Shown here piece after piece: positions 13,347 through 46,342 of a stretch of 64,000 nucleotides of DNA. Source of the stretch: Phascolarctobacterium sp. (lineage in GTDB: Bacteria; Bacillota; Negativicutes; Acidaminococcales; Acidaminococcaceae); the NCBI GenBank assembly GCA_017467905.1, contig JAFUKD010000024.1, forward strand, positions 25,958 to 89,957, written 5' to 3'. Each line of letters begins with the position of its first letter. The first letter of the stretch is position 1. A program made the translations under genes and the position numbers. The notes under the pieces are model-generated. The model saw nothing but the letters and a program-made list of their open reading frames with translations, was not told where the DNA came from and made no database searches.

Positions 13347-16300
13347 TTAGAAAGTTACTCTCAAGCCTGCATCTACACGCCATTTTTCGGTTACATCGCC
13401 ACCGAAGCTGCGTTCATAGGTTGCATAAAGCAGGCTGTTATCGCTCAGCTTAGCAGTGCCGCCAAGTTGCATTTCGTACCAAGTATCGCCAAAGTCGATG
13501 TTAGTACCCTTAGTTTCTTCTGCAGTGTAGTTGGTATCGAAATCGCCACCAAATTCATGAGCCAAAGCAAGTTTAGCATAGTAGCTTGCTCTTTCAGTTC
13601 TTTGACCAATGCCAAAACCAACGCGACCGATGATGCTGTTGAAGTCGTCTTGTTCAACTTGCATGGTTGCAGTTTTGCCGTAAGCAGCGAGCATATCACT
13701 GGTTGCAGTATAGTCTTTGCCTTGAACGTGACCAATGGTCAATTCAACGCTGGGGTCAAAGTAGAAGCCATTGCCTTTTTCGATGCGTTTGCCGTATTCT
13801 GCACTGATGGAAGTACCCCAAGTTTTGAAGTCGCCTTCAAGTTTGTAGCCATCGTTGTTAAATACTTCGTATTCGTTTTTCAATTGGCTACCTTTGAGGA
13901 TCAAGCCAAGGTAACGACCGTCGCCATAATCTTTGTTACCGTAAACAGAGAGGCTGGTTACAGTCATTTCGCCTTCACCACCACGGTCATAGCGGCTATC
14001 GCCTTCATTATGGCTTACTGCTACGCCCACGTTCCAACCATTGCCAACTGCTTTGTCATAGCCAACTTGGTATGCTTTGTAGTTGGTGGAGAAGTTGGTG
14101 TTTTGAGCATCCATTTCGTATTTACCGCCATAGTATTTAGCCCAAACGCCACTTTCTTCTGTAGCAAGGCGTACATCGCCCATGCGTTGGAGCAGGTCGT
14201 TGCTTTCGCTTCGCCACATCATAACGGTGGAAGCCATTGCAGATTTAGCGCCTTTCATCATAGCAGTTTCGCTATCACCATAGATGTAACCACTGTCAGG
14301 ATATCTTGCAGTAATGGATTCTTCGTCCAAATCACCAGTACCATTAGCAAAGTTAATGCTACCAACTTTCAATGCGCTTGCAGATGTTACGATACCTTCT
14401 GCAATTTGAGCTTCACCGAGAATATTTTTAGCATTGCTAAGCGCATTACCGTTTTCATCTTTAGCAATCATCTTCGCTGCCAAAGCTTTAAGTACTTTAG
14501 CAACTTCTTCTTTATCGCTAGTACCAATGCTATTAGTTCTTACATTCACGACGGAACCGTCAGCAGCTTTTTGGATATTAACATTACCACCAAGAATATC
14601 GTTGTCTGCATTATGACGATAGATAAAGGTAGTTTCGCCACTGTAATCTTCAACGGTCAAACCAGCGTTACTATCTTCACTCATACGGATGAAGCCTTCT
14701 TTTTCACCAGAAGCAGCACCCGCAAGTTTATCAATGGTAGTCGCATCTTCTGCGGTGTTTTCCCAAATAGCACCGTTGGAGATTTGCAAGTTAAGAGCAG
14801 AACCGGAAGCAATATCATCATGGTAACCAGTCCATACACCGCCATCATCAAGCAGTACGGTCAAATCTACGCCACCAACACTGTTACCAGTCCATTTTGC
14901 ACCGTTGGCAATGGTTGCACCAAATTTATTGTCACCATTACCTGCATATTCAACATTATCGTTCAAAGCAGAATCAGCAGTAGTCAGGCTTACAGAAGAA
15001 GCATCTGTAGGCACAACCATTCTACGAGTAAGCTTCAACACTACGGGTACTGCTTGTTCTTCTTCAACAGGTTTAGCTACGCCAAGAACAATTTTGCCGT
15101 TGATAACTACGTCGTGGTCTTTCGCTTCTTCGTTAATCTTAATCTTACCGCCATCGGTAACTTTAATTGCTGCTTCATCACCTTTAGCACCAATTTCGCC
15201 ACCTGCAAGAGTTACAGTAGAGCCTTCGCCTACATTAACAGCAATCTTGCCATTGGTTTCAGTAATATCTACCAAACCGTTGATAGTTACGTTAGCTTTA
15301 TCTTCTGCGTGCAATACGCCATGGGTTTTATCGTTATCTTTGGCACTAAGTTTAACAATATTATCATCCTTATCAGTATGGATAGTAACATCTTTGCCCT
15401 CACCGCTTGCATAGATGGCAGAAGCCTTACCATTGTTGCCTACTGCTTCTGTTGTAATGATAATGTTGCCAGCATCCTTAATTGTTACACTGCCATCTAC
15501 CGCTTCAATGCCTTTAGCTTCCTTAGCTTCGCCATTAGTTTTACCAGTAACATCAAGGTCTTTACCTTTCATTTCAAGTACAAGATTACCACTCGCGGGA
15601 CCACCAATTAAGGTAGTATTTTCTGTGGATTCTTGCGGAGCGATAATTACTTTATCAACTTCTTCATGTTCAGGTTTAGCATTGCCTTGTTGGTCAATAT
15701 CAAGCTTGCCAAAATCAACTACATTATTACCACTTTCATCCTTGCTAACGATACTTTCGCCTTTATCATTTTTAAGGCTATCGTCGTTTGTCAAATCGCC
15801 ACCGATACCGCCAAATTCTTTTTCAACAGGTTTTTCTTCAGGTTCAACAGGTTTTTCCGGTTCAACAGGTTTATCCGGAGTGGTAGGTGTATCTTCGCCA
15901 CCTTGGTTACCACCTTGGTTATCGTCACCACTAGGAGGTACTTCCGGTGCTACATCCATTTGCAAGCTATCTTTATTCAGGCTACCTTGACCAGTAGAGC
16001 TACTAAAATCAATGTTGCCGGTATGTTTACCTACGCTAGAAGCAGTCAAGCCTTCGGCAATTTGAACGTACCCTTTCAAGTTGCGTTCGCCATCAACATA
16101 GTTAGTGTAGTACAGTTTTTCTGCAAGGTTATCTAAAGTTTCAGCAACTTGTACTTTATTCAAGATGTTATACCCATCAGTACTCAAGGTAATTTTAGAA
16201 CCTTTTTCAGCATGTTCAATGGTAGTAGTACCGCCGAGAACTTTGGTTACATTGTTATCGTCACGTCTGTAGATGATTGTTGTATTACCGCTGTAATTGG

Positions 16301-19300
16301 TAATTTTCAAGTTACCAGTTTCTTGTTTGCCCTTATCTTCGATACTTGTGTTCTTAAAGCTTACGCCATTACTATTTTCTGCATGGCTAGCATCATTATG
16401 ACCAATAAATGTTTTGTTACCAGTCATATCAATAAAGCCGTTGTCCCCGATAAAGGTGTAAACTTTACTATCAGCACCTTGGTCTTTGGTAATTGCGTTT
16501 TGCCAAAGTGCCTTGTCAGTCAGTGTCAAAGTTAAACCACCATTAATTTCACCAACATCGTCAGGTTCACGTTCTGCAATGTTAAATCCGTACCAAGTAG
16601 TACCTTCACCTTCCATGGTTACGTTCATTTCGCCGTCACTAAAGCCAGTCCAGTCTGCCCCATTTTTCATATACAGGGTAACATTGCCTTCTTGACCTTT
16701 AGTTACGCCATAACCGCGGTTATCGCCATAGTTACCAGTCCAGTAGCTTTCGTCACCGTTCAAGCCTACAGTAATGTAACCTAAAGTACCCATACCGCCG
16801 TTGGTTACAAAGTCACCAATAATGGTAGTCTTGCGTTCGCCAGCACCAGTAATATTTCCGTCCTCATCTTTAACTACGTTCACGTTTACAGTTGCAGCGT
16901 TATCGGAAACAAATTCACCATAAGCACGAATAGCGCACCATGCACCATTTTTAGCTTCAAGATGTCCGCCACCGATTTCAATGTCAGAAGCAACTGCACT
17001 AAGAGCTTCGTTGTTGCACTTATCCAAATCAGCAACGATATGTACCATACCATCAATTATTACTTTAGAACGTACACCATCAAGACCGTTCATGGTCTTA
17101 ATACCAGCACCTTCTTGACCATAAGTATCAGGGTCAACACCTGCTTGAGTGTCAATCCTCACAACTCCGCCTTCGCCATTTTTAATATGTACCACGCCAC
17201 CGCCGTTAGCAAATATGCCCGCAGAAGGACCAATACAATTTTCAGTAATGGTAATATTACCAGGATTATTAATTTCAACAGTACCGCCATCAATAGCACT
17301 GATTGCCGCACCGCTACCAATACTTGTACTATTGTTATTCAACACAAGTTCATTGCCATTTAAGTTGACAATAGTTTTATAGCTTTTATCTGGATTATCC
17401 AAATCACCACTTGCATAGATAATTGCACCTATATCTTTATGCCATGGGCCACCTTCAATACGGGTTGTATCATTTCGGGTGGTGTTTTCAGTATAAGTAA
17501 TGACTTGTTCATAAACTACAGGTTCAGTTACCACATCATCTTCGTCATCATCAGGTGTGCTACCACCATCAACAACCAAATCGCCAAGGCTACCCTTACC
17601 ACTACTTGCATCAAATTTAATATTACCATTCAAAGTACCGCTTTCTTTATCAAAGGCAACTTTTTCAAGTTCGCTATTAACGCTACCTTTATTATCAATA
17701 AAGCCACCATTTAAAAGTTCTGCTGTAATTGAAGAAGCAGTCAAACCTTCGCCAATTTTCAAATAACCTTTTAAATTATTTTCGCCATTTGTATAACCAG
17801 TATAGTAAAGTTTACCTGCTAAACTATTGAGTACTTCTTCTACATTATCAACTGTAATAGCACTGGAATAGTTAGTTTGTAAGGTAAGGTTACTACCTGC
17901 TGTAGCACTTATTATAGTGATATCCCCACTACCTTGGAAATTAGTAGGTTCACCTTCTTCATAAGAATATATTACGGTTGCATTATTGTGGAACTTATCA
18001 ATAAGAATATCACCACTATTTGCGGTTTGAATTATCCTAGCATCGGCATAATTCGCCGTCGTCCCCCTGCCAACACTCAAATCCGTGCCACGGAAGTTGG
18101 TTAAATGACTTGTTACACCAGGTTCGCCATTGGTAGAAACGTTAGTCCAAGTAGCACCATCAACCAAGTACAAATTAGCAGCACCACCTTCGTTAATGAC
18201 AGCACCATTAAAATAAGCGTAACTACCTTTCATACGTGCATCAATAGCAGCATTTTCACCACCAACATACCAGTCGCCATCAATCATACCACCAACTGGA
18301 ACGGTGTTGTGTGTATATGTAGGGTCATAGCCATAGGAAGGATAACCATTGCCGTCAAATTGGATATTGCCATTATAGGCTGCTAAAGAATAATACTTAT
18401 GCTCTGCATTACCTGTAGGTACAAGGATTTGACTTCCTTTATACGGATTGTAGTTAATGTTATTGTTGCCTACATTGTACCCTACCTTGACAGCCGCAAA
18501 GCTTCCCATTAAATCGCTACCAGATGCATCAACAGTAATACCATTACCGCAAACATCCATATAGACACTACCATTTATCTCAATAGAACTTCCATTTACA
18601 TCTAACAAAATACCCGAATTATTATAACGTGCATCAGTATTGTCAGGATTATCGCAGATACCCCATTGATTAGGTTCAGTACCTTTTATCTTCACATCAC
18701 CATTAATACTTAGATAGCCACCCAAATCTGATTCTTTATTACCATCACTTCTAGTAATTGCGATACCATTACCACCATGACCACCCACCATAGTAATATT
18801 TATCCCATGGCTAGATTGAATAGCTGCACTTAAACAATCAGTAGTATTACCAAGACCAGGTTCTATCCAAATTGCGTTTGTGCGTAAGTAACTGTCTTCC
18901 GGTAATACGGTTACGATATCAATAGTTTTATCACTACCAGCTGTACCAAGTATTGCCCAGTTATCAATCGCATCATTATAAATAGCAACCGGTTTATAAT
19001 CATAATCACCATTTATTTGTATGCGTACTAAATCAGGGTTATCAGTACCAAGCCAATCCTGATAACCATTTTCTAAATATAATCCAGTTACAATCTTCTT
19101 GTCTTCAAGTTTTATAGCTTCGCTTGTATCTATAACTCCGTTCGGTGTTGCATCAACAAAAACATCATTATCATACAAAGGTGCTTCGTGATTTTTAACA
19201 TTGGGGTACGCAGGACCAGTAGTTACTTGTTCATTGTCGTTATCATCGCCACCAACATCACCACCACCAATATTAAGGTTTTCGTCAGTAATATTGCCGG

Positions 19301-29419: not shown

Positions 29420-29776
29420 TTAGAAAGCAATAATCTCTCCGTTTAATCTTGCAAATTTTTGAGGATGCTCAAATTTCTTTAAATACTTATCCAAAAGTTC
29501 AGGACTAAGACTTTGCAGTTCATCAGTTGAACAATCGCAAAGGAAAGCTTTACCAGCTATGATGTCTATGATTTCTCCATCATTATCATAAACAGCTCTA
29601 TTTAAAGGTAATCCATTAATTTTACCTTCTTCGTTGCAAGCAAGACCAACAAACACATCAGAGAATGGATAGATTATTTCTACAGTGCCTTCCACAGCTT
29701 CTTGTATGGAAGCCAGGTCACTACCAATCTCTTTTACATAAGCTGGTTTACCAGGCTCTAACATTATTACTTGCAT
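29420..29776 (-). CDS. DUF3846-like protein, a type seen on Firmicute mobile elements
   Basis: 118 aa with the pattern MQVIMLEPGKPAYVKEI...LQEAVEG..E..YPF...V.L.CNEEGK..GLPLNR. Confidence 0.5.
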   Translation of the reverse strand: MQVIMLEPGKPAYVKEIGSDLASIQEAVEGTVEIIYPFSDVFVGLACNEEGKINGLPLNRAVYDNDGEIIDIIAGKAFLCDCSTDELQSLSPELLDKYLKKFEHPQKFARLNGEIIAF

Positions 29777-29796: not shown

Positions 29797-30216
29797 TTAA
29801 AATGGTTCTTTCATATCCATATCGTTATCTTCTTCAGTAGTTACGTAACTATCAAACTGATTACTGTTGCGTAGATAGAAAACCATAGAATAAGAATCGT
29901 TATAAACAACTATGATTTTTGTCCATTTTTCATTATCAAAATAGTAGTTGTAGGCTACCTCTGGTATAATACCTTCCCAACCTTCAGATAACCCAATGCT
30001 TTTTAATTGGTCGATAGTTTCGCTACCATCCAGCAATGCAACATAGCCATAATCATAATCATCCGTATGAAATTCTGTAAAACTGACTTCATTGTATTCG
30101 TCTGACCAGCTTTTAATTCTGGATAATTCTTCCTTCAGCATTTTTATGATACGATTAGGAACAATACCCATCATTGTAAGCTTGATAATATCCTTGTAGC
30201 ATTTTACTTCTATCAT
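29797..30216 (-). CDS. Hypothetical protein
   Basis: 139-aa ORF. Its start overlaps the upstream stop codon (ATGA) and an AAGGAGG RBS lies inside the upstream gene. Confidence 0.45.
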   Translation of the reverse strand: MIEVKCYKDIIKLTMMGIVPNRIIKMLKEELSRIKSWSDEYNEVSFTEFHTDDYDYGYVALLDGSETIDQLKSIGLSEGWEGIIPEVAYNYYFDNEKWTKIIVVYNDSYSMVFYLRNSNQFDSYVTTEEDNDMDMKEPF

Positions 30217-30935
30217 GCTGCCTCCTTGTTAGCCATTCGTTTTTGACAATCATAGCAAATGGGTTTACCGAATTTGTTTAAAGCATAGTCCAGTACTTTT
30301 TGAGACTTAATTGGTGTATTGCATTGGCAGCATATAGTACCAAATGGTGGCTCGTGGATTTCGGGTGCCTTAGGAGTGTCTACATTAGGTTCATAGTTTC
30401 TGGTCTTGGAAGCTATACTGAATCTTTCCTTACCATCTTTGTCTAGGACTACAAACTTGGTGAATTTATTTTGTGTCTTGTCATAGGTCATATCAGCACC
30501 GACATAGAATTTAGCATAGCTTTTAGGTTTGCCATTATTGCCTATGAAAAATTCGTCATCGTTAAGCTTGAATCTAATATCAGGAGCAGAATAAAGCTCT
30601 CTGCCGATCTTCCAATTAAAGCAAGCACGCTTGAAAGCATCGGAAGCTTCCCCTTTAGTAGGTTCAGTATTACTTGGTACTCCTACATCTTGTTTGGAGA
30701 TCCATTCCTGTTTTTTCTCATCATAGACACTTACTGTACAGAACAGTCTGCCATCTATCACGGTATGTTCTCGTTTCCAGTTCATAGAGCCAAAGCATTC
30801 GTCAAGGATACGCATATCCACTCTGGAATTCTTATATGCAAGCAGTACTGCAAAAGTTCCTTGGTTTGTTTGTTGGAGCTGTGCAATCCGCAATTCCACA
30901 TCAGAAGCAGTTAATAAAGGTATATCTTTTTCCAT
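30213..30935 (-). CDS. Rad52/Sak-like single-strand annealing protein with a C-terminal zinc ribbon
   Basis: ILDECFGSMNWKREH...KQDVGVPSNTEPTKGEASDAFKRACFNWKIGRELYSAP matches the Rad52_Rad22/DUF1071 core. The C-terminus has CCQCN...CYDC. Confidence 0.7.
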   Translation of the reverse strand: MEKDIPLLTASDVELRIAQLQQTNQGTFAVLLAYKNSRVDMRILDECFGSMNWKREHTVIDGRLFCTVSVYDEKKQEWISKQDVGVPSNTEPTKGEASDAFKRACFNWKIGRELYSAPDIRFKLNDDEFFIGNNGKPKSYAKFYVGADMTYDKTQNKFTKFVVLDKDGKERFSIASKTRNYEPNVDTPKAPEIHEPPFGTICCQCNTPIKSQKVLDYALNKFGKPICYDCQKRMANKEAA

Positions 30936-31017
30936 ATTTAGTTCCTTTCTAAACTTAGGTAAAAAATAATAGGCTACCGATTATAGCAGCCTATGAGTAG
31001 TGAGTTGTTGTTCATTT

Positions 31018-31218
31018 TTAAGCAGCTTTTGAAAGCTCTTCTTCAGTAAGTTCCTTGGTTACTATTGATAACTTGGTGGAGTTGTTGCTGAAGGTAATGG
31101 ATACTCCATTGGTAGAAGCAATGTGCTTACTATCATATTTGTCTTGGAATACTACGGCAACTTCATCATTATCATTAAGGATTGAGAGAGCCTGCAGGAT
31201 TTGTTTCTTGGTCATCAT
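31018..31218 (-). CDS. Hypothetical small protein
   Basis: 66-aa ORF lying in the operon. Confidence 0.35.
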   Translation of the reverse strand: MMTKKQILQALSILNDNDEVAVVFQDKYDSKHIASTNGVSITFSNNSTKLSIVTKELTEEELSKAA

Positions 31219-31249: not shown

Positions 31250-31537
31250 TTAGTTCTTGCGTACAATCATATGACGAAGGATATCCTCATTGATTTTCAT
31301 ATATCGGTCAATTTCCCTGGTTACATCACAAGTGCCAATGTAAGTGAAAAGTAAATAGATGCCAGTGTTCAGACCACAGATTTCATAAGCAAGTCGTTTT
31401 TCGCCCCAGTTGTCTACTTTATCGACCTTACCATCAGCAGTGATGATGGACTTGGTTTTATCAATGATTGCATTGAGGTTTTCTTCAGGCATAGGTTTTA
31501 TAATAATCATAATTTCATAGTTATTCATTATCTTCAC
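31250..31537 (-). CDS. Ribosomal protein bS6 (RpsF) paralogue encoded on the island
   Basis: 95 aa. YEIMIIIKP...NWGEKRLAYEI...GIYLLF...REIDRYMKINEDILRHMIVRK matches the bS6 hallmark blocks YE.M.I.RP / WGKRRLAYEI / G.Y / FDR..KI.DDI.RH.VV. Confidence 0.7.
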   Translation of the reverse strand: MKIMNNYEIMIIIKPMPEENLNAIIDKTKSIITADGKVDKVDNWGEKRLAYEICGLNTGIYLLFTYIGTCDVTREIDRYMKINEDILRHMIVRKN

Positions 31538-31545
31538 CTTTCTTT

Positions 31546-32454
31546 TTAAGCAGCGTTGGTTAAGCTATCTTGATTTGATAGTTGTTCTGTGTAGTCTTGT
31601 CTGCAAGCTTCATATACATTGCAGTAGTCCTGACATTTTCTTCCACTCCAGGATTCTCGCTTACTACAGAAGTCAGGTAATACACCACTAGCCATAGCTT
31701 CTTCAAGTCTACGCTTCTTGATGGCAAAATAGCGTTTGATCCAAATGTCGCTTATTTTATTGACCTTGATAAGATAGATTGGTTTCTCGACATTTCGTTC
31801 TGCAGCGATCCTCAAAGAATAGTCACGCACATACATCTGGATATGCATATCGTCTACCTTGAAGTTATGCTCCTCAAGCAGCATTCTGTAAGCATTGATT
31901 TGAATAGCCCATTCGAGGATATGCTTAACTCCTCCAGTCTTGAAAACTTTACGAGTCTTTGGTTGACCTTTCTTAGCACCAGTCTTATAGACTTCGCCAG
32001 TAGGTTCGTCTACCTTATAGTAGCCAAGAGCCATAGCTGCTTTGAATGAAGAAGTAACCTTATAGTCGAGCAGTATCTTCTTACCATTACCTAATAAGTC
32101 ACCATAGGCATCTATCTGTCCAGTATAGGTATCGTTAGATAGCCTTACTTCGGTCAAGGTAAATGATGAAGAATGCTTCTCGCATATGGAATGAACAGCA
32201 GTACCATGCATAGCAAATATTTGGTCTTGCGGGTCAATGGCATAATCAGTAGTTTTCTTGAGGTAAACCTCTCTAGTGCCTGATATGAGTTCAGTAACGG
32301 AATACTTACTACCCAAGCCTCTGTCCTTAACGCTGTTAGCAACTGCTTCAAGGGTAGGCTTACCCATACAACGCATTGCATTAGGACAAGCACTTAGGCA
32401 TTCAGATATTCCTATGCGTTCTTTGCTAGGACAAATGAATTGAGTAGCTCCCAT
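31546..32454 (-). CDS. PD-(D/E)XK RecB/Cas4-family exonuclease with a Fe-S cluster cysteine signature
   Basis: Motifs IDAYGD...ILLDYKVTSS (D...D.K) and QINAYRMLL (QxxxY). There are N-terminal Cys residues plus the C-terminal CSKRESWSGRKCQDYCNVYEAC. Confidence 0.65.
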   Translation of the reverse strand: MGATQFICPSKERIGISECLSACPNAMRCMGKPTLEAVANSVKDRGLGSKYSVTELISGTREVYLKKTTDYAIDPQDQIFAMHGTAVHSICEKHSSSFTLTEVRLSNDTYTGQIDAYGDLLGNGKKILLDYKVTSSFKAAMALGYYKVDEPTGEVYKTGAKKGQPKTRKVFKTGGVKHILEWAIQINAYRMLLEEHNFKVDDMHIQMYVRDYSLRIAAERNVEKPIYLIKVNKISDIWIKRYFAIKKRRLEEAMASGVLPDFCSKRESWSGRKCQDYCNVYEACRQDYTEQLSNQDSLTNAA

Positions 32455-32456
32455 TT

Positions 32457-33098
32457 TTAAGCGACCTCCTTCTTAGCCATAAATTCAGCCATTTCGTTGT
32501 GGTACTCCTTAAATCTATGAATGTAGAAATAATATTCTTTGTCCAAAGAACCATAGATTTGGTCAATGCTACGCTCGATATCGTCTAAGGTATCGAAATA
32601 ACCAAAGTAAGCTTTAGGAAAGCTAGTTCTAAGATAGGTAAATAAAGCCTTATATGTCTTGAAGTATTCAGATTCGGAAACACCATTAATTCGCCATTCA
32701 ACTTTATAGCGGTCAGGATAGAATACTCCAGTATCGTCTTTAACAATGAAGATATCGCCACCATCTTCGGAACAGAAGCTAAGATGGATTTCGTTATGGT
32801 ACTTTTCTTTCAAAAGGTTAATGATGGGAAGCATATTTTCGCTCCAAGCGGTGGTTGTTTCGCAACTGAAATAATGCACACCTCTCTTGCTGGTGATGAA
32901 CTCCTCACAATGGCTAAAATGATCGGTATTGTTCACACCCAACGGAAGCAAATAGCCATGGGATTTGAGAAGATCCCTAACGAGATTTTTACCCTTTACT
33001 GCATCGTCATAGCAGCTAAGGACTTTCTTATGCAGTTCTCTAAGCAGCTTACTGTTACGAGAACTAAAGGTAATGGAATTGACAGCGTAATTACACAT
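32457..33098 (-). CDS. Hypothetical protein
   Basis: Start set at MCNYAVNSITF after an AAGGAGG RBS. 213 aa with no firm family call. Confidence 0.45.
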   Translation of the reverse strand: MCNYAVNSITFSSRNSKLLRELHKKVLSCYDDAVKGKNLVRDLLKSHGYLLPLGVNNTDHFSHCEEFITSKRGVHYFSCETTTAWSENMLPIINLLKEKYHNEIHLSFCSEDGGDIFIVKDDTGVFYPDRYKVEWRINGVSESEYFKTYKALFTYLRTSFPKAYFGYFDTLDDIERSIDQIYGSLDKEYYFYIHRFKEYHNEMAEFMAKKEVA

Positions 33099-33202
33099 AG
33101 TAACTACCTCCTTGAAAAATAGAAAATAAAAAGAACCTTCCATCCAAATCTAGACAGAAGGTTCCATAACCACTGTTTTTGCAAAAAAACACTTGGTTCG
33201 TG

Positions 33203-33294: not shown

Positions 33295-33345
33295 AAAAAG
33301 CAGTGAGAAAGAATCATATTTCTTTCCCACTACTTTTGGATAATC
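33295..33345 (-). terminator. Rho-independent terminator after doc
   Basis: Minus strand reads AGTGGGAAAGAA ATATG ATTCTTTCTCACT GCTTTTTT. Confidence 0.6.
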
Positions 33346-33358
33346 AATTTAAATACAA

Positions 33359-33736
33359 CTATACACGATGGTTCTTAATCCACTCTAAAAGCTCATCATA
33401 TTTCAAACTACCTTCTGCTAATCCCAACCCTATCTGTACTACTTCATCATTAGTACAATCAAGATATATTCCATTAACCTCCAAGAATGTAATCATTATG
33501 TACATTCCTATTCTTTTATTACCATCGACAAATGCATGATTAGATACTAAGCTATATCCTATTTTTGCAGCCTTTTCTTCTTTGGTAGGATAAAACTCCT
33601 TATCACCAAAACCTGCAAAAGCACTCTCTATAGCAGACTCCAATAGTCCTTCATCACGAACACCAACGCTACCTCCAGTTTCGGCAGCAATAAGTTGATG
33701 TAACAGTAATATCTTTTCTTTAGAAAACTTAATCAT
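33359..33736 (-). CDS. doc: Doc (death-on-curing, Fic family) toxin
   Basis: 125 aa with the HAFVDGNKRIG Fic/Doc motif. Overlaps the phd stop by 4 nt. Confidence 0.85.
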   Translation of the reverse strand: MIKFSKEKILLLHQLIAAETGGSVGVRDEGLLESAIESAFAGFGDKEFYPTKEEKAAKIGYSLVSNHAFVDGNKRIGMYIMITFLEVNGIYLDCTNDEVVQIGLGLAEGSLKYDELLEWIKNHRV

Positions 33737-33999
33737 TTCGCAAGCTCCAGAAATGCAGGTTTAAATCTTTTTAAAACCCTGGCTGCAACAATATCAATTT
33801 TTTCATCATCAGTTAAATCAATTATAGGGGAATTATCCATATCAATAACGAGATATTTAGGTCGATTGTTTTTGAAAATAACTGCTTGTCCATTTTTTTC
33901 TGCAATTCTAGTAACACGAGAAAAATTTTGGTTGGCTTCAGTAACAGAAACGATAGTATTGGTATCAATATTCATATCAACTACCTCCTTTATCTCCAT
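33733..33999 (-). CDS. phd: Phd/YefM-family antitoxin
   Basis: 88 aa containing VSVTEANQNFSRVTRIAEKNGQAVIFKNNRPKYLVID. Immediately upstream of doc. Confidence 0.75.
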   Translation of the reverse strand: MEIKEVVDMNIDTNTIVSVTEANQNFSRVTRIAEKNGQAVIFKNNRPKYLVIDMDNSPIIDLTDDEKIDIVAARVLKRFKPAFLELAK

Positions 34000-34139: not shown

Positions 34140-34295
34140 TTATGACCAGAATAACCTCCAATAAACCAAGAGTATTAAGCTTTTGAATGTTATCCATAAT
34201 ACTAATAATAAACTAAGTAATAGCAATTCTAGCCTTTTATCCGTTTCACTAAGCATATGCTCCCACCTTTCGTTGTTATATTTGATTTCTGTCAT
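34140..34295 (-). CDS. Possible 51-aa hydrophobic micro-protein translationally coupled to the recombinase stop
   Basis: Own translation gives MTEIKYNNERWEHMLSETDKRLELLLLSLLLVLWITFKSLILLVYWRLFWS. Its ATG overlaps the recombinase TGA (ATGA). Below the track size cut-off. Confidence 0.25.
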   Translation of the reverse strand: MTEIKYNNERWEHMLSETDKRLELLLLSLLLVLWITFKSLILLVYWRLFWS

Positions 34296-35932
34296 ATTTC
34301 GATAACCAATAGCCATTGCTCATCCTCCAGTGTTCCGTTGCATAAAAAAATCCCCCCATCATTTTGGGAGGATTTAGATGTCAGGTATTCTTGAAGCTCT
34401 ATGCCAAACTTCATATAGAGCTTATCTACCTTGTTATTTTTCACGGTTATTCTATCAATCAACAATCTCAATAACAATTTCGTTTGTTCTGGTGGAGCGG
34501 AATCCATCACTGCCTTAAAGTTTGCCAATGATTCCTTTATAAATTCAATATTCAACTCATTGTTGGTAAGGCTATTATTTCCTGCTAATATTTTCTTCTG
34601 TTCTATTAGCTTAGTAGCACTATCATTCAACTCGCTTATCCTTTTATCAAGGGTAGCTTTGTCATATCTGCCATCAATGTATAAGTCTAATAGCCTTTGT
34701 TTACGTTCTTCAATTTCAACTATCTTTGCATCCACGCTATCATACTCACGCTTCCTGCTTTCGATAGATTTGTCTGCTTTTTTCTTAATTCCACATAGTA
34801 TTTCTTGGATAAGCTCAGGACTACTTAAAAACTCTGCTACCTTATCCAATACATATTTCTCTGCTTCGTCAGCACCTACAGAGTTACTTTTACATACGCT
34901 AGCACCTTTGTTTTTGAAGTTGGAACAACAATAGTACCTATATACTCGTTTATTGCCATTCTTCAAATTACTAGTAGACCTACCTATCACCATAGGAGCA
35001 TTGCACACAGGGCAACGCAACAGGCTACTAAGATAGTTCTCGTCATTATGTACTTTCTGCGTAGTAGAACACCTTTCAGAACGAATATTTTGTGCCCTGT
35101 TCCAAACTGCTTCGCTAACAATAGCTTCGTGAACGCCTTTAACGATAATAGGGTTTGGATTCTTCCCTTTTCTACGTTTTTCGCTCCACTTGCGGTACTT
35201 CCCATATCTTACATAACCCTTGTATAGTGGGTTATCGATAATTTCTCTTATGCTATACAAGCTAAACTCTTTACCATGAATAGTTCTATAACCTTCTTTG
35301 TTAAGTTTATTAGCTATAGCCTTAAAGCCTTTACCATTGCAGAACCATTCGTATATTTTCCTGATGATTATCGCTTCTGGCTCATAAATGACTAGGTCAT
35401 TCTTTTTGGGTCTGGTAGCACTCGGAACAACTCGGTAACCCAATGCCTTACTACCGCTATGCAAGCCAAGTCTAGCTCTTTGGTTTAAGCCTAAGCTAAC
35501 ATTTTCAACAATGGTATTGCGTTCTAATTCACCAACCGCAGCGAGCATTTGAACTGCAAACTTACCCATGGGATTAGAGGTATCGAAGTTTTCTGTGAGT
35601 GAGGTGATGGAAACGTTATATTTCTCTAGTCTCTCGAAAATCTCAAGGAAATCCTTGGTATTACGAGAAATGCGATTAATCTTCCACACCACCACTTCGT
35701 CAAACTTACCACTCTCAGCATCTTTAAGAAGCCTCTGTACCTCTGGTCGTTTAGTAATGTTCTTACCACTTATGCCAGCATCTACATATTCACCGACTAC
35801 AGTATAGCCATGCAGTTCACAATATTGGTGGATTTTTTCTTTTTGACCTTCAATGGAATAACCCTTCTCAGCTTGTTCTTCAGTTGATACCCTTGCATAT
35901 AGGGCTACTCGTTTTGGTTTTGATGGATCCAT
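34292..35932 (-). CDS. Large serine recombinase (CcrB-like position)
   Basis: MDPSKPKRVALYARVSTEEQ catalytic N-terminus, a recombinase domain, a zinc-ribbon (CPVCNAPM...YRYYCCSNFKNKGASVC) and a coiled-coil C-terminus. Start set at the internal ATG 4 nt after the upstream stop. Confidence 0.9.
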   Translation of the reverse strand: MDPSKPKRVALYARVSTEEQAEKGYSIEGQKEKIHQYCELHGYTVVGEYVDAGISGKNITKRPEVQRLLKDAESGKFDEVVVWKINRISRNTKDFLEIFERLEKYNVSITSLTENFDTSNPMGKFAVQMLAAVGELERNTIVENVSLGLNQRARLGLHSGSKALGYRVVPSATRPKKNDLVIYEPEAIIIRKIYEWFCNGKGFKAIANKLNKEGYRTIHGKEFSLYSIREIIDNPLYKGYVRYGKYRKWSEKRRKGKNPNPIIVKGVHEAIVSEAVWNRAQNIRSERCSTTQKVHNDENYLSSLLRCPVCNAPMVIGRSTSNLKNGNKRVYRYYCCSNFKNKGASVCKSNSVGADEAEKYVLDKVAEFLSSPELIQEILCGIKKKADKSIESRKREYDSVDAKIVEIEERKQRLLDLYIDGRYDKATLDKRISELNDSATKLIEQKKILAGNNSLTNNELNIEFIKESLANFKAVMDSAPPEQTKLLLRLLIDRITVKNNKVDKLYMKFGIELQEYLTSKSSQNDGGIFLCNGTLEDEQWLLVIEI

Positions 35933-35936
35933 AAAT

Positions 35937-37463
35937 TCACCTACTTTCTTTAATATCAATTTTCATTGTTTGTAACCTTCCATTCTGCTTCACGTTAGGT
36001 ATGTAAACTTCAATAGTCTTAACGAACCTATCCTCGTCTACATATACCGCCTTAATAACACCACGTAGCAGCTTTATCTTTTCTTCGTCAGTTGCTTTTT
36101 CTAACAGCTTTGGTAATAGTTTAAACGCTGCTCTAATTTCTTCTTCGCTATACGCTTGCCTTACTTCACTAAACTGCTTACGATTTAGATCCAGTTCTAC
36201 TTCTTCTATGGCTTCCTGAATAGCATTGTCCTCTTCCAGCAACTGTTCAGTGCTTAGCCTGCCTTCTTCAAAAGCCAATAGCAGTTTATCACGCTTGGCA
36301 TTCAGCTTAGTTATATTACTTTTAAGGCTCTCTATTTTATCTTCCATAGACTTATCAACGGATAATCTTACTTGGACTTCTTCAATTACCTTATTCAGCC
36401 AGATATCCTTACACAGATACTTGTAAAGGAAAGCCAAAACAACTTCATCAGCTTCTTTAGCCTTGACTAAGTTTGGCTTGCAATTGCCAGTTCCCCTATT
36501 ATTGTACTCGTTACAGCTATAGTAATAGTACCGCCTTTCAGTACCATTCTTATTCTTATGGAATACGTGTGCAGGTATCATACCTGTACCACAAGCAGGA
36601 CACTTAACTAGTCCTGAGAGCAAGTAACGGTAATCAACAATTCGTTTACAGTGTGTTTTGGTAGCCAACATTGCTTGAGCCTTTTCCCAAGTTTCAATGC
36701 TTACTATAGGCTCATGAATACCTTGGTAATACTCTCCACAATACTTGACCATTCCTGCATACACCTTACTATCCAATATTCTCTTAATAGACATAATGGA
36801 AAACGGACTACCCTTACTACCTCTATACCCATCAGCATTCAACATTTGAGCAATTGACTTAAAGCCATATCCTTGCAAGTATAAATCAAATACTTTCCTT
36901 ACAGCTTTTGCTTCTCTCGGAACTATTACTAGCTTTTTAGTGCCTTTAGGGTCATCAGTGTCAGGTATGCTATCATACCCAAACAGCTTCCCACCAACTA
37001 CCTTGCCGGCTTTAGCCTTTTTCTTGCTCCCATTAAGTACGTTTTCTATCAAAGCTTCCCTCTGCATTTGGGCAATGCTGCCAAACATCTGGGCAGTAAA
37101 CTTTCCTACAGGGGTATTAAGGTCAAACTTTTCAGTAAAGCTGAATAGCTGTATGTTTTCCCTTTGAAATTCGTCGAAGATAACCAATAAATTAGCAAGC
37201 TTCCTGCTCAACCTGCTTATCATCCAAACGCCTACACTACCAAATAGACCTTCTTTAGCATCATTAAGCATAGCCTGTAAGCCAGGTCTTTCCATAGTAT
37301 ATCCAGAAATACCTGCGTCCTTATAGACCTTGAACACCTTCTTGCCTTGTCGAGCGATTTCGTCTCGAAGCACCTTTTCCTGAGCTTCGAGACTATAACC
37401 GCCTTCTGCTTGCCTAGTGCTACTAACACGCACATAGATAGCTACAAACTTAGATTTATCCAT
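35937..37463 (-). CDS. Large serine recombinase (CcrA-like position)
   Basis: FVAIYVRVSSTRQAEGGYSLEAQ catalytic N-terminus, a zinc-ribbon (CPACGTGM...YYYYSCNEYNNRGTGNC) and a coiled-coil. Confidence 0.9.
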   Translation of the reverse strand: MDKSKFVAIYVRVSSTRQAEGGYSLEAQEKVLRDEIARQGKKVFKVYKDAGISGYTMERPGLQAMLNDAKEGLFGSVGVWMISRLSRKLANLLVIFDEFQRENIQLFSFTEKFDLNTPVGKFTAQMFGSIAQMQREALIENVLNGSKKKAKAGKVVGGKLFGYDSIPDTDDPKGTKKLVIVPREAKAVRKVFDLYLQGYGFKSIAQMLNADGYRGSKGSPFSIMSIKRILDSKVYAGMVKYCGEYYQGIHEPIVSIETWEKAQAMLATKTHCKRIVDYRYLLSGLVKCPACGTGMIPAHVFHKNKNGTERRYYYYSCNEYNNRGTGNCKPNLVKAKEADEVVLAFLYKYLCKDIWLNKVIEEVQVRLSVDKSMEDKIESLKSNITKLNAKRDKLLLAFEEGRLSTEQLLEEDNAIQEAIEEVELDLNRKQFSEVRQAYSEEEIRAAFKLLPKLLEKATDEEKIKLLRGVIKAVYVDEDRFVKTIEVYIPNVKQNGRLQTMKIDIKESR

Positions 37464-39293: not shown

Positions 39294-40526
39294 TCAAGCA
39301 ACATTGGTTCTAGAGCTTTGTCCAGAAACAATTACCCTACTAGGAATCGTGGTCATAACATTATTACCTTTAACACCTTTTTTCAGAGCATATGCTTTTA
39401 AAAAGGTGTGGTCGTCACCAAAAAGTACTTTGGAGATGGCTCTACCCAAATGAATGTACTCGGCAAGCTCACCGTAGTCCTCACTAAAACCAACAGTTTC
39501 TTTAATATATAAAGCCTTGCGTAAAACCTCAAAAATTTTATACAACAGGTATGGCTTAATAGCATTAAGTTCAGCCTTTACATCTTCCAGAACATTAGTG
39601 GTATAGTCGAAGCCCAGATTAGGGTTAACAGAAATCAACATATCAGCAAAGCCAACGCCGAGATCATCATGTTCTATACAACTAATGCTATAAGCGTTAG
39701 ACAGGTCATTGTTCAAGTAATAGTAATCTTCTAAAACTGCCAGTTCTGTACATGCTTCGATGTTTTTGAGATCTTTTACTGTGTGACCACATTGGAAGTA
39801 TCTTTCACTACAAGCTTGGTCATCATCCATATCAGCAAAGGACGGCAAATACAAGCAGTCTTCCTTCAACGGGTCAATCAGAGATTGTAATGCAAAGTTA
39901 AATGCTTGCTTTACATCGTCTCTATCGCTATCGATATATAGAATAGGTTTTCGGATGCAAGGTGCAAACATAGTAATTATGGTAACTGCCAAAGCGACTG
40001 CGTCAACGTAGTTAAGATGTAGCAATCTTTGCAATGCATCAACCAAATCTATTTCGTCATCAGGTACCGGCAATACTTGTGGTGCAGCATAAGGACTATT
40101 GCAAAAAGCAATATCTTTATCTGCCAACGCTTCCATAGGAATGATTTTTGCTTCGCAATCATCGGAGCCATCAATAAGAGCCATAACGTTTTTACCATCG
40201 AAGTTGTAATAAATAACGCCTTCAGAAACGGCAATACGAGAAACTACAGTCTTTTCTTCATGATGAGCTTCAATATATTTAGCAAAAGCATTTACAGCAG
40301 TAGCCAAATACTTAGGATTTTCTTTCATCAGTCTTTCGTTGGTAGTAACAATCCAATTCTTGACTGCAACACTGTCGTAGGCTACGGTTACCAGATTATC
40401 GCTACCATCTTTAAATGTCATGTAATAGTTACCACTATTTTTAGCAACAATTCCTTTAAAGTCAGAAACTTTAAGAGTAATGGTCTTAACTTCTCGTTGT
40501 TCAATTTTCAAAGTTTGTTCATTCAT
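39294..40526 (-). CDS. Paralogue of the P-loop protein with a degenerate Walker A (pseudo-NTPase)
   Basis: 410 aa. Shared blocks are SRIAVSEGVIYYNF, QVLPVPDDEIDLVDAL, FAPCIRKPILYI, LIDPLK and KPYLLYKIFEVLRKAL. The Walker A position reads DSDRDDVK. Confidence 0.55.
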   Translation of the reverse strand: MNEQTLKIEQREVKTITLKVSDFKGIVAKNSGNYYMTFKDGSDNLVTVAYDSVAVKNWIVTTNERLMKENPKYLATAVNAFAKYIEAHHEEKTVVSRIAVSEGVIYYNFDGKNVMALIDGSDDCEAKIIPMEALADKDIAFCNSPYAAPQVLPVPDDEIDLVDALQRLLHLNYVDAVALAVTIITMFAPCIRKPILYIDSDRDDVKQAFNFALQSLIDPLKEDCLYLPSFADMDDDQACSERYFQCGHTVKDLKNIEACTELAVLEDYYYLNNDLSNAYSISCIEHDDLGVGFADMLISVNPNLGFDYTTNVLEDVKAELNAIKPYLLYKIFEVLRKALYIKETVGFSEDYGELAEYIHLGRAISKVLFGDDHTFLKAYALKKGVKGNNVMTTIPSRVIVSGQSSRTNVA

Positions 40527-40551
40527 ATTGTTTTCTTCCTTTCCTTATTAA

Positions 40552-40578
40552 GCAGAGTGGAGGCGAACCCCACCCTGC
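40552..40578 (-). promoter_or_regulatory. Intercistronic GC-rich hairpin H3
   Basis: Minus strand reads GCAGGGTGGGG TTCG CCTCCACTCTGC. Confidence 0.45.
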
Positions 40579-40586
40579 ATTTTTTA

Positions 40587-41816
40587 TTACGCAACACTAT
40601 ATAGGGCTTTTAATTCAAGACTATCAGCCATATCAAAGATTTCGTCTAATTCCGCGCTCTCCACCTTATGGTCATAGAAATCCATGAAAAGCATAACCGG
40701 AATCAATTCATCCGCCAAAGGCTTGCGCAATGCAAATACTTTGTCGAAAGCTTCAGCTTTACCAAAGATGACAGCCGCAATCGCTCTAGCCCATTGGACG
40801 AATTCAGTAAGGTCACCAAAGTCCTCTACCGCTATTGTTTCTTTTACCACCATCGCCTTGCTTAGAACCTCAAAGATTGCATTCAAGATATCTGGTCGTT
40901 CTTTTTCTACAACTTTTTTAGCTTCAGCCAATGGTTCGTAGTTGCCAATCAGTTTAGATTTGATGGTAACAACAATTGAAGCTAGCTTAGCAGTTACTGA
41001 ATCCAAGCCTATATCATTCACCACGAAGCAGTTGCGCAAGTTGCCCATATCAGAACCACAAGGTGTCAAGTTTTCTACATTCATGTCGAATACATCTTTA
41101 ACATCTTTGAATGTATTAGCAACGTGCAAGTAACGTTTGGCAAAAGCCCATTCTTCGCTTCTATCATGAGAATAACAGAACTCTTCTTCTTTGATTGGAT
41201 CAACGAGAGCTTGAAGCACGTAATTACATACTGCCTTGGCACCATCGTCCTTGCAAGTTATGTTTAAAACAGGCTTGAAGATTTGGGGAACGAACATCGC
41301 TACCAAAACAATCGCCATCAAAATGCTATCAAGTCGGTCTAAGCCTAACAAATAGCCAATTTTCTCAGGCAAATCTACTTTATTACCTTGCTTGGGTAAA
41401 TCCTGGACATCCATTAATCGGTCATTAACAAAAGCAAAAAGCTCATTTCTTAAGCTACCTGCTTCAACCAGACTAGTACGACCAGGTTCGACAACCAAAA
41501 CGTTGCCATCCATAAAGTTGTAGAAAATCTTGTCACCTTCTTGAGCAATACGAGACATAACGTCTTTTCCCATACCCTCATAACCAGCAACATCTGCCAA
41601 CTTATGCAATGCGCATCTTACAAGTTCAGGATTTTGTGCAACAAGTTGCGGGTTCTTTTCTTCCATCCAAGCTACAAAACGGTCGTCATAAAGAGGGATA
41701 TTAATGAAGCCCTCTTTTTCATTCTCGTAACTAATGCAATATTCGCCGATGTTGCAGCCGATGAACAATTTAGCATCGGCAGGAACATTTGCAATAACAG
41801 AATCTACTTTTTTCAT
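40587..41816 (-). CDS. Paralogue of the P-loop protein with a degenerate Walker A (pseudo-NTPase)
   Basis: 409 aa. Shared blocks are SRIAQEGDKIFYNF, FVPQIFKPVLNI, LVDPIK and RPDILNAIFEVLSKAM. The Walker A position reads TCKDDGAK. Confidence 0.55.
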   Translation of the reverse strand: MKKVDSVIANVPADAKLFIGCNIGEYCISYENEKEGFINIPLYDDRFVAWMEEKNPQLVAQNPELVRCALHKLADVAGYEGMGKDVMSRIAQEGDKIFYNFMDGNVLVVEPGRTSLVEAGSLRNELFAFVNDRLMDVQDLPKQGNKVDLPEKIGYLLGLDRLDSILMAIVLVAMFVPQIFKPVLNITCKDDGAKAVCNYVLQALVDPIKEEEFCYSHDRSEEWAFAKRYLHVANTFKDVKDVFDMNVENLTPCGSDMGNLRNCFVVNDIGLDSVTAKLASIVVTIKSKLIGNYEPLAEAKKVVEKERPDILNAIFEVLSKAMVVKETIAVEDFGDLTEFVQWARAIAAVIFGKAEAFDKVFALRKPLADELIPVMLFMDFYDHKVESAELDEIFDMADSLELKALYSVA

Positions 41817-45853: not shown

Positions 45854-45880
45854 AACGCTCCGTTAGTTATGATACTTCTG
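45854..45880 (-). repeat. rlmH-proximal direct repeat (candidate attR)
   Basis: AACGCTCCGTTAGTTATGATACTT is identical to 10570-10593. It covers the rlmH stop codon (45863-45865) and its last four codons. Confidence 0.65.
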
Positions 45881-46342
45881 ACCGCTACTAATCTTAAATG
45901 CTCTGTAAATCTGCTCAATCAAAAGCAGTCTAATCATTTGATGAGTAAAGGTCATTTTAGAAAAGCTCAAGGCAAAATCTGCACGCTTGCGCAAAGCATC
46001 CGTATAACCAAAGGCACCGCCAATGACAAAAGTTATATGACTATGTCCGCTGAGAGCAAGATTATCAATCTTACTTGCCAGCTCCGGTGAAGATAACTGC
46101 TTGCCAATTACGTCCAGTAAAATCACATAGGAATTTTCCGGAATAATCGCTAGAAGCCTATTAGTTTCCTTCGCCAGTACTTGCTCCTTTTCTGCAGGCG
46201 CAGGGTTATCAGGCATTTTTTCTTCATTGATGGCTACGGTCTCCAATTTACAGAAAGGAGTAAGCCTTTTGGTAAATTCGTCAATACCAGCAGTCAGGTA
46301 TTTTTCTTTAATCTTTCCTACACACGCAATGGTTATCTTCAC
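45863..46342 (-). CDS. rlmH: 23S rRNA (pseudouridine1915-N3)-methyltransferase RlmH
   Basis: 159 aa, SPOUT family. Contains MKITIACVGKIKEKYL...LSSPELA...HITFVIGGAFG...LSFSKMTFTHQM.R..L.EQIYRAF. Confidence 0.9.
   Translation of the reverse strand: MKITIACVGKIKEKYLTAGIDEFTKRLTPFCKLETVAINEEKMPDNPAPAEKEQVLAKETNRLLAIIPENSYVILLDVIGKQLSSPELASKIDNLALSGHSHITFVIGGAFGYTDALRKRADFALSFSKMTFTHQMIRLLLIEQIYRAFKISSGQKYHN

Follow-up and report, generated by a model that had tools for sequence, protein, structure and literature searches.

A gene for ribosomal protein bS6 occupies a variable cargo slot in the conserved recombination module of an SCC-like island, carried within the 64,000-nt stretch of Phascolarctobacterium sp. 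DNA analyzed here (the window). Judged from its sequence, the gene is fast-evolving and intact. Our preferred reading, to which we assign a probability of roughly 45%, is that it encodes a working bS6 variant, carried as cargo and expressed from an island operon outside housekeeping control, whose product would pair with host bS18 and enter the 30S platform. Of the parts of this proposal, we infer the pairing with bS18, the entry into ribosomes and the benefit to the element. An earlier note on this DNA had set ribosome remodelling beside a repurposed fold, and the sequence evidence leans to the first.

Identity and fold of the island protein

Reading the sequence confirmed a minus-strand open reading frame at 31250–31537. 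The 95-aa frame of the earlier note therefore exists, but its GTG codon (31537) falls within a ribosome-binding site (AAAGGTGAAGATA-ATG). Because homologues uniformly begin M-x-x-Y-E, translation most likely starts at the ATG at 31528, which would give a 92-aa product (31250–31528, minus strand). The stop codon of the upstream nuclease gene lies 17 nt ahead of this ATG, and the intervening spacer (31529–31545, minus strand) contains the ribosome-binding site (GGTGA) and is too short for a leader.

Full-length homology to bS6, originally recognized by eye, proved correct by three approaches. First, the Pfam Ribosomal_S6 profile (PF01250) supports the assignment, matching the frame at 91.2 bits (E = 4.9e-26, against a curated cut-off of 27) over profile positions 1–90 of 90. 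Second, the top solved-structure matches of the protein are to bS6 only, from E = 7e-18 downwards. Finally, an AlphaFold2 model with a pLDDT of 94.8 and the element order E-H-E-E-H-E aligns with ribosomal bS6 of B. subtilis, C. acnes and E. faecalis at TM scores of 0.94–0.96, with an rmsd of 0.9 Å for the B. subtilis and C. acnes proteins (TM 0.95–0.96); the split β-α-β (ferredoxin-like) fold of bS6 is present in this predicted structure. No family in PHROGs matched the window protein.

A recombination module on an SCC-like island

The carrier is an SCC-like island by virtue of its serine recombinase pair and its adjacency to rlmH. Two tandem large serine recombinases (CcrAB-like; 34292–37463, minus strand) each contain Resolvase, Recombinase and Zn_ribbon_recom domains, and rlmH (45863–46342, minus strand; Pfam SPOUT_MTase, PF02590, 191.6 bits) is the chromosomal gene at the island edge. 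Together with a phage-type string of recombination genes, these features bear out the mobile-element location proposed before. SCCmec cassettes carry ccrAB recombinases and insert at rlmH/orfX. The present island resembles these staphylococcal elements in having two tandem large serine recombinases and in abutting rlmH; it differs in that its host is a Negativicute. We know of no report of an SCC element with a ribosomal protein gene, or with a Rad52-type annealase and a Cas4-like nuclease.

The bS6 gene lies in a same-strand string in the order p228, Cas4-like nuclease, bS6, 66-aa protein, Rad52-like annealase, 139-aa protein and DUF3846. The p228 protein (32457–33098, minus strand) belongs to a family present in nearly all related loci, with sizes of 213 or 228 aa and always encoded 5' of the nuclease; it weakly resembles Api92/DUF1281_C, the DUF1281_C matches being sub-threshold and found in three members. 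The nuclease (31546–32454, minus strand) is a 302-aa PD-(D/E)XK or Cas4-like exonuclease (phrog_2139 exonuclease, E = 3e-20). Downstream of bS6, the 66-aa protein p66 (31018–31218, minus strand) is encoded by a core gene of the module that related islands keep with or without bS6, and other islands have p99 in its place. Next come a Rad52/Erf-like single-strand annealing protein with a C-terminal zinc ribbon (30213–30935, minus strand; Pfam Rad52_Rad22, 22.7 bits; phrog_14970, E = 8e-67; phrog_1097, Erf-like SSAP, E = 2e-21), a 139-aa protein (29797–30216, minus strand) whose conservation in the module emerged from comparison of related loci, and a DUF3846 protein (29420–29776, minus strand; Pfam PF12957, 100.8 bits). 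A Phd-like antitoxin and Fic/Doc toxin pair (33359–33999, minus strand; Pfam PF02661, 55 bits) lies upstream of the module, the antitoxin match (PF02604, 25 bits) falling under its cut-off. The immediate neighbors of bS6 are thus those described before, a 66-aa frame downstream and a Cas4-like nuclease upstream. The context is also non-canonical, as the earlier note held: the rpsF-ssb-rpsR order is absent.

The p66 protein had no family match in Pfam or PHROGs. The idea that p66 and p99 are remnants of SSB was dropped, as BLASTP against a reference set found no similarity to SSB and family searches gave no matches.

Terminator-like hairpins were seen on the minus strand at 30969–30994, 33132–33165, 33296–33337 and 34348–34375; in the scanned stretch of the co-directional string, nine were found against 2.7 expected. 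Because one hairpin lies between p66 and the annealase, the p228-nuclease-bS6-p66 string may be a separate transcription unit.

Three bS6 genes and the housekeeping operon

The 41-contig assembly (G000) contains three Ribosomal_S6 matches, namely the window copy on contig C13, C40:18913–19173 and C9:16216–16482. All three genes share one module layout, with p228 and nuclease genes before bS6 and genes for a small protein (p66 or p99) and an annealase after it, and none adjoins ssb or rpsR. The modules lie on three different contigs and their backbones differ. The C13 module has serine recombinases and sits at rlmH; the C40 module comes after chromosomal genes and a sequence resembling a tRNA gene, on a contig in which no recombinase or helicase homologues were found; and the C9 island has an Erf-type annealase.

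The C9 island is split exactly at the nuclease/bS6 junction (16204–17049 and 39878–40822; loci L057 and L058), the nuclease being separated from bS6-p99-Erf by some 23 kb that comprises housekeeping genes and a transposase gene of the IS200 type. The spacing between nuclease and bS6 in G002 and G001 is 55–120 nt. The split reflects either a rearrangement or a chimeric contig.

The canonical rpsF-ssb-rpsR operon is missing from the assembly: profile searches and tblastn with congener proteins found neither rpsR nor ssb in the 41 contigs, and no SSB domain (PF00436) occurs anywhere in them. This absence invites the reading that the window gene is itself the housekeeping rpsF and that the island boundaries are wrong. 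We regard that reading as extremely improbable for several reasons. The three bS6 genes lie on three contigs, each inside a copy of one mobile module, and the window protein is 49% identical to the housekeeping protein of the genus, which is otherwise 74–95% conserved across genera. The window copy also lacks the conserved leader and GTG start of housekeeping rpsF, and another genome (G002) has both the canonical operon and one island copy. Moreover, rpsR and ssb are missing along with the operon's rpsF, which points to an assembly gap, as do the end of contig C14 and a contig break in G001. In G003, a tRNA cluster and a gene for a small membrane protein precede the canonical rpsR-ssb-rpsF block; the equivalent tRNA cluster in G000 is 2 kb from the end of contig C14. 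In G001, a contig ends inside housekeeping rpsF. Searches failed to find rpsR in four of eight genus assemblies. As rpsR and ssb are essential genes, the housekeeping operon of this strain most likely lies in an assembly gap.

The search for a chromosomal rpsF, proposed in the earlier note, showed that the window gene is not the only rpsF of the genome, which has three, all in the island module. Its description as a paralogue stands insofar as there are three bS6 genes and the window product shares just 49% identity with the housekeeping protein of the genus; the strain's own housekeeping copy was not seen, and the label depends on the operon that we place in the gap. Several of the assemblies G000, G001, G004, G006 and G007 have island rpsF copies, and island rpsF in multiple copies may break assemblies at the housekeeping operon. 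Such copies are extra copies of a commonly used single-copy marker gene.

A variable cargo slot

A single Ribosomal_S6 match is the rule in the family, being the count in most of 140 genomes. Three were found in G000, six in G001 (at least four of them within island modules, another being the housekeeping copy truncated by a contig end, and one more unplaced), and two each in G002, G072, G086, G088, G094, G099 and G108. The nuclease, taken as the marker of related islands, occurs in 20 of the 140 genomes at 47–90% identity, and island presence is patchy across the family. Directly after the nuclease, bS6 was found in 9 of 22 readable loci (two in G000, four in G001 and one each in G002, G004 and G108); a G006 copy at a contig end, the split C9 locus and one IMG/VR contig (L068) stand outside these nine. 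The slot lacks bS6 in the other 13 loci. It contains instead a Fic protein in L023, a RelE/Phd-type pair in L038, a 232-aa protein followed by a HipA-like pair in L024 and a second p66-like gene in L019, and it is empty in most of the rest (for example, L020–L022 and L026–L028). This variability among related islands argues that bS6 is selected cargo rather than a fixed part of the recombination machinery.

Toxin–antitoxin or Fic genes lie at the slot or just 5' of p228 in L023, L024, L038 and L068. The Fic, RelE/Phd and HipA-like genes, the last with an HTH partner, were named from the look of their sequences, and the Pfam check covered the window pair.

A comparison of the window with C40 or L068 shows 83–94% identity for p228 and the nuclease, 40–42% for bS6 and 49–66% for the genes after it. 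The drop in identity after the nuclease indicates a recombination break at the nuclease/bS6 junction.

The anatomy of the slot bears on another explanation for the gene, in which the element's ssDNA machinery has taken over the bS6 fold, as a partner of the annealase and exonuclease or as a stand-in or helper for SSB, and the protein is no longer ribosomal. The position of bS6 between exonuclease and annealase in three islands of a genome whose assembly yielded no SSB gene favors this idea, which we nonetheless consider unlikely. Against it, the 13 of 22 readable islands without bS6 keep the nuclease, the small protein and the annealase, and no SSB was found in the slot of any related island read. 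In addition, bS6 type does not track annealase type, C9-type bS6 occurring with both Erf-like and Rad52-like annealases.

Conservation, origin and selection

We took as near-universal the positions with at least 85% conservation in a set of ~140 diverse bS6 cluster representatives. In housekeeping numbering, these are Y4, E5, G34, W42, G43, L47, A48, Y49, G57, Y59, E73 and R86, and none of the 12 is altered in the window copy. Two or three are changed in the C40 copy, and as many in the phage family described below, including W42L and E73K in C40 and L47M and A48P in the phages. Sites that vary among mobile copies tend to be those that vary in bS6 at large (Spearman 0.65). This conservation fits a protein still doing what bS6 does, with part of the signal probably coming from the fold core, as several of the conserved residues are probably core residues that would be kept under any function of the fold. 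With a pI of 5.8 and a net charge of −1 (housekeeping pI 5.3), the window protein shows no shift toward a basic, nucleic-acid-binding charge. This lack of positive-charge gain and the bS6-like pattern of conservation speak against recruitment to ssDNA, whereas the much faster evolution of island copies relative to housekeeping bS6 would favor it.

C40-type bS6 proteins extend 10–12 residues past the C-terminal end of the bS6 core (L003:1498–1809, on contig C40 of G000; L068:4968–5306). The extension is acidic in the C40 copy and absent from the family's other island and housekeeping copies.

In a bS6 phylogeny, the mobile and viral copies without exception join the housekeeping bS6 of Negativicutes and stand separate from other bacteria (93% SH-aLRT), which shows that they derive from the ribosomal gene of such hosts. 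Their branches are much longer than those of housekeeping rpsF, and the three types found in G000 fall in different places. The window type, at the 49% identity noted above, forms its own supported clade, found only in Phascolarctobacterium. The C9 type (75% identity to the genus housekeeping protein) nests among housekeeping sequences, and the C40 type (43%) forms a clade with L068. Housekeeping bS6 proteins are 74–95% identical across genera. A single origin of the mobile copies is not rejected (AU test, p = 0.57) and the free tree needs several, in a poorly resolved tree of a 92-residue protein with long branches.

Estimates of dN/dS were 0.04–0.16 for the C9-type clade, with unsaturated dS, and 0.02–0.19 for housekeeping copies across genera. 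Values for the window and C40 types were 0.17–0.29, with dS saturated for the window copy against L059/L060 and against C40, so that those ratios are rough. Over this range (0.04–0.29), element bS6 is under purifying selection, and the gene is intact in every examined copy not cut by a contig end.

These data also bear on the possibility that bS6 is a passenger, picked up from the host's rpsF-ssb region or along with it and kept under weak or indirect selection, for example through dosage, with no role specific to the element. The C9 type, ~25% diverged from the genus housekeeping protein and nested among housekeeping sequences, fits a recent capture from a host, and a slot that accumulates miscellaneous cargo and that in many related islands lacks bS6 is also in keeping with a passenger. 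The intactness of the examined copies and dN/dS values of the same order as those of housekeeping genes make this explanation improbable, however, as do the persistence of old, deeply diverged lineages (the window, C40 and G108 types and the phage family) and the recurrence of bS6 in at least four element backbones.

The housekeeping leader and its absence from island copies

Housekeeping rpsF of the family is preceded by a leader conserved in the loci of ten genomes, comprising a promoter, a hairpin and then GCCAAAGUCCAAAGGAGGAGGUGAUUUC-GUG (L005:1774–1850, minus strand; equivalents upstream of L004–L014). Its near-invariant stretch ends in the Shine–Dalgarno sequence and the GTG start, and its predicted fold pairs the Shine–Dalgarno region. 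The leader is absent upstream of all island copies, which all start at ATG, and Rfam identified no named RNA upstream of housekeeping or island rpsF. Compared with chromosomal rpsF of the rpsF-ssb-rpsR operons of Firmicutes and Negativicutes, therefore, the window gene is alike in family, fold, length and near-universal residues, and differs in having neither ssb nor rpsR as a neighbor, in lacking the conserved leader, in starting with ATG rather than GTG and in its 49% identity to the genus protein.

The bS6–bS18 complex represses its own operon via a 5' leader, and the Firmicutes operon includes ssb (review PMC10931766). The housekeeping leader may be a candidate bS6:bS18 operator. These features raise the possibility of a regulatory decoy, in which the island protein would bind host bS18 or the rpsF-ssb-rpsR leader, shift autoregulation and alter the host supply of SSB and bS18. 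Such a scheme would make sense of the strong conservation of the family's housekeeping leader and its predicted pairing of the Shine–Dalgarno region, of island copies that, lacking the leader, would not be subject to the operon feedback, and of an island with an annealase and a nuclease and no SSB of its own. We consider it very unlikely. It is inferential throughout; the Rfam search assigned the leader to no family; other bS6-carrying elements have their own SSB; and the contact of bS18, not bS6, with the mRNA is crucial for repression (PMC10931766).

Other elements and viruses that carry bS6

Gut mobile elements and phages often carry a bS6 gene. Three further elements of the family carry bS6 in other contexts, which include ParA, a DnaB-like helicase, β-clamp, ClpXP and toxin–antitoxin pairs. 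A profile scan of IMG/VR found 48 contigs with bS6, of which one is an island of the present type (L068). The 47 others (L067 and L069–L114) are a homogeneous viral family of ~30–88 kb, mostly from sample 3300045988, whose bS6 has RMPY in place of RLAY. Detailed examination of one contig (L088) showed bS6 next to genes for RadC, DUF7659, DUF3846 and ParB_N proteins.

Single-protein scans with the window bS6 returned little: nothing in IMG/VR, two distant loci in metagenomes, and, in genomes, only two Phascolarctobacterium MAGs (close relatives) and unrelated housekeeping genes. Searches of phage and plasmid collections by tblastn gave distant matches only (<50% identity), with the annotated ones labelled rpsF. 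One of these, a C. difficile 'plasmid', was discarded as an element copy, as inspection showed a chromosomal rpsF-ssb-rpsR region.

Two gene families recur around element-borne bS6. A DUF3846 gene lies 2–5 kb from bS6 in three unrelated element types: the SCC-like island (window, 29420–29776), the phage family (L088:2857–3330) and a plasmid-like element (L052:5452–5931). Genes resembling p228 (weakly Api92/DUF1281_C-like) recur near bS6 in L049 and L067.

The wider set of carriers cuts both ways for an ssDNA role. In two unrelated elements (L049 and L052), an element SSB gene lies one to three genes from bS6, but BLASTP with a reference set detected no ssb, rpsR or annealase gene within 5 kb of bS6 in any of the 47 viral contigs. 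A still broader version of the idea, in which element-borne bS6 is non-ribosomal throughout and gut elements and phages at large have adopted its fold as a partner of SSB, annealase and exonuclease, strikes us as improbable. If true, it would offer a functional reason for the ancient, unexplained linkage of rpsF with ssb/priB in bacterial chromosomes.

Virus-encoded ribosomal proteins provide the closest known parallel (Mizuno et al. 2019, Nat Commun 10:752; PMC6375957). In that study, bS6 is among the proteins enriched in phages of animal-associated bacteria; bS21, bL12, bL9, bL31 and bL33 are the easily exchanged proteins that viruses tend to carry; and incorporation into ribosomes was shown for bS21 and bL12 only, not bS6. 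The likeness to our case is a ribosomal protein gene in a mobile genome, host-derived and under purifying selection. The differences are threefold. First, the carrier here is an integrated serine-recombinase island (SCC-like, at rlmH) and its relatives, not a phage. Second, the slot that the gene fills, within an exonuclease/annealase string, varies in content. Finally, three divergent copies occur in one genome.

Discussion

We return to our preferred reading, in which the island gene encodes a working bS6 variant, borne as accessory cargo by mobile elements of gut Negativicutes. The gene would be transcribed with the p228-nuclease-bS6-p66 string and translated from its own ribosome-binding site and ATG. 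Without the structured leader and GTG start, it could escape whatever control acts on housekeeping rpsF. Its product would then pair with host bS18 and enter the 30S platform, either replacing host bS6 or alongside it, and the outcome would be a sub-population of ribosomes tuned in the element's favor. The logic would be the same as that shown for viral bS21 and bL12. For Bacteroidia, two papers describe a platform pocket formed by bS6, bS18 and bS21 that controls access to the anti-Shine–Dalgarno tail (PMC9976891, PMC13000457).

Precedent for the choice between paralogues comes from chromosomal systems. The three bS21 paralogues of Francisella tularensis (PMC13374519) and bL31A/B of E. coli (PMC7363858) resemble the present case in that more than one gene encodes a small peripheral ribosomal protein, and these papers indicate that paralogue choice alters which mRNAs are translated. 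Both systems differ from ours in being chromosomal and experimentally characterized. Our literature searches found no bS6 paralogue system.

Several points count against a ribosomal role. The first is divergence, with the window and C40 proteins at 49% and 43% identity to the genus housekeeping bS6, compared with 74–95% among housekeeping proteins across genera. Second, near-universal residues are changed in some mobile lineages (C40 and the phage family). Third, bS6 lies repeatedly beside genes that handle ssDNA, an annealase and a nuclease here and SSB in L049 and L052. Finally, bS6 is not among the easily exchanged proteins that viruses carry (PMC6375957).

That elements and viruses carry ribosomal protein genes, with bS6 listed among them, is already known (PMC6375957). 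New here are the type of carrier, an SCC-like island and its relatives in a Negativicute; the anatomy of the cargo slot around bS6; the multiplicity of copies, with three divergent ones in this genome and at least four island copies in a sister genome; and the absence of the housekeeping leader from the island copies.

Mobile ribosomal protein genes are one of the few direct hints of bacterial parasites tampering with the host ribosome, and bS6 shares the 30S platform, the site at which start-site selection is set, with bS18 and bS21. The locus offers a compact natural set of variants: a single 1.8-Mb genome with three divergent bS6 copies, sister islands that have or lack bS6, and a phage family with its own version. 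The same material is relevant to the question of why so many bacteria have rpsF linked to ssb.
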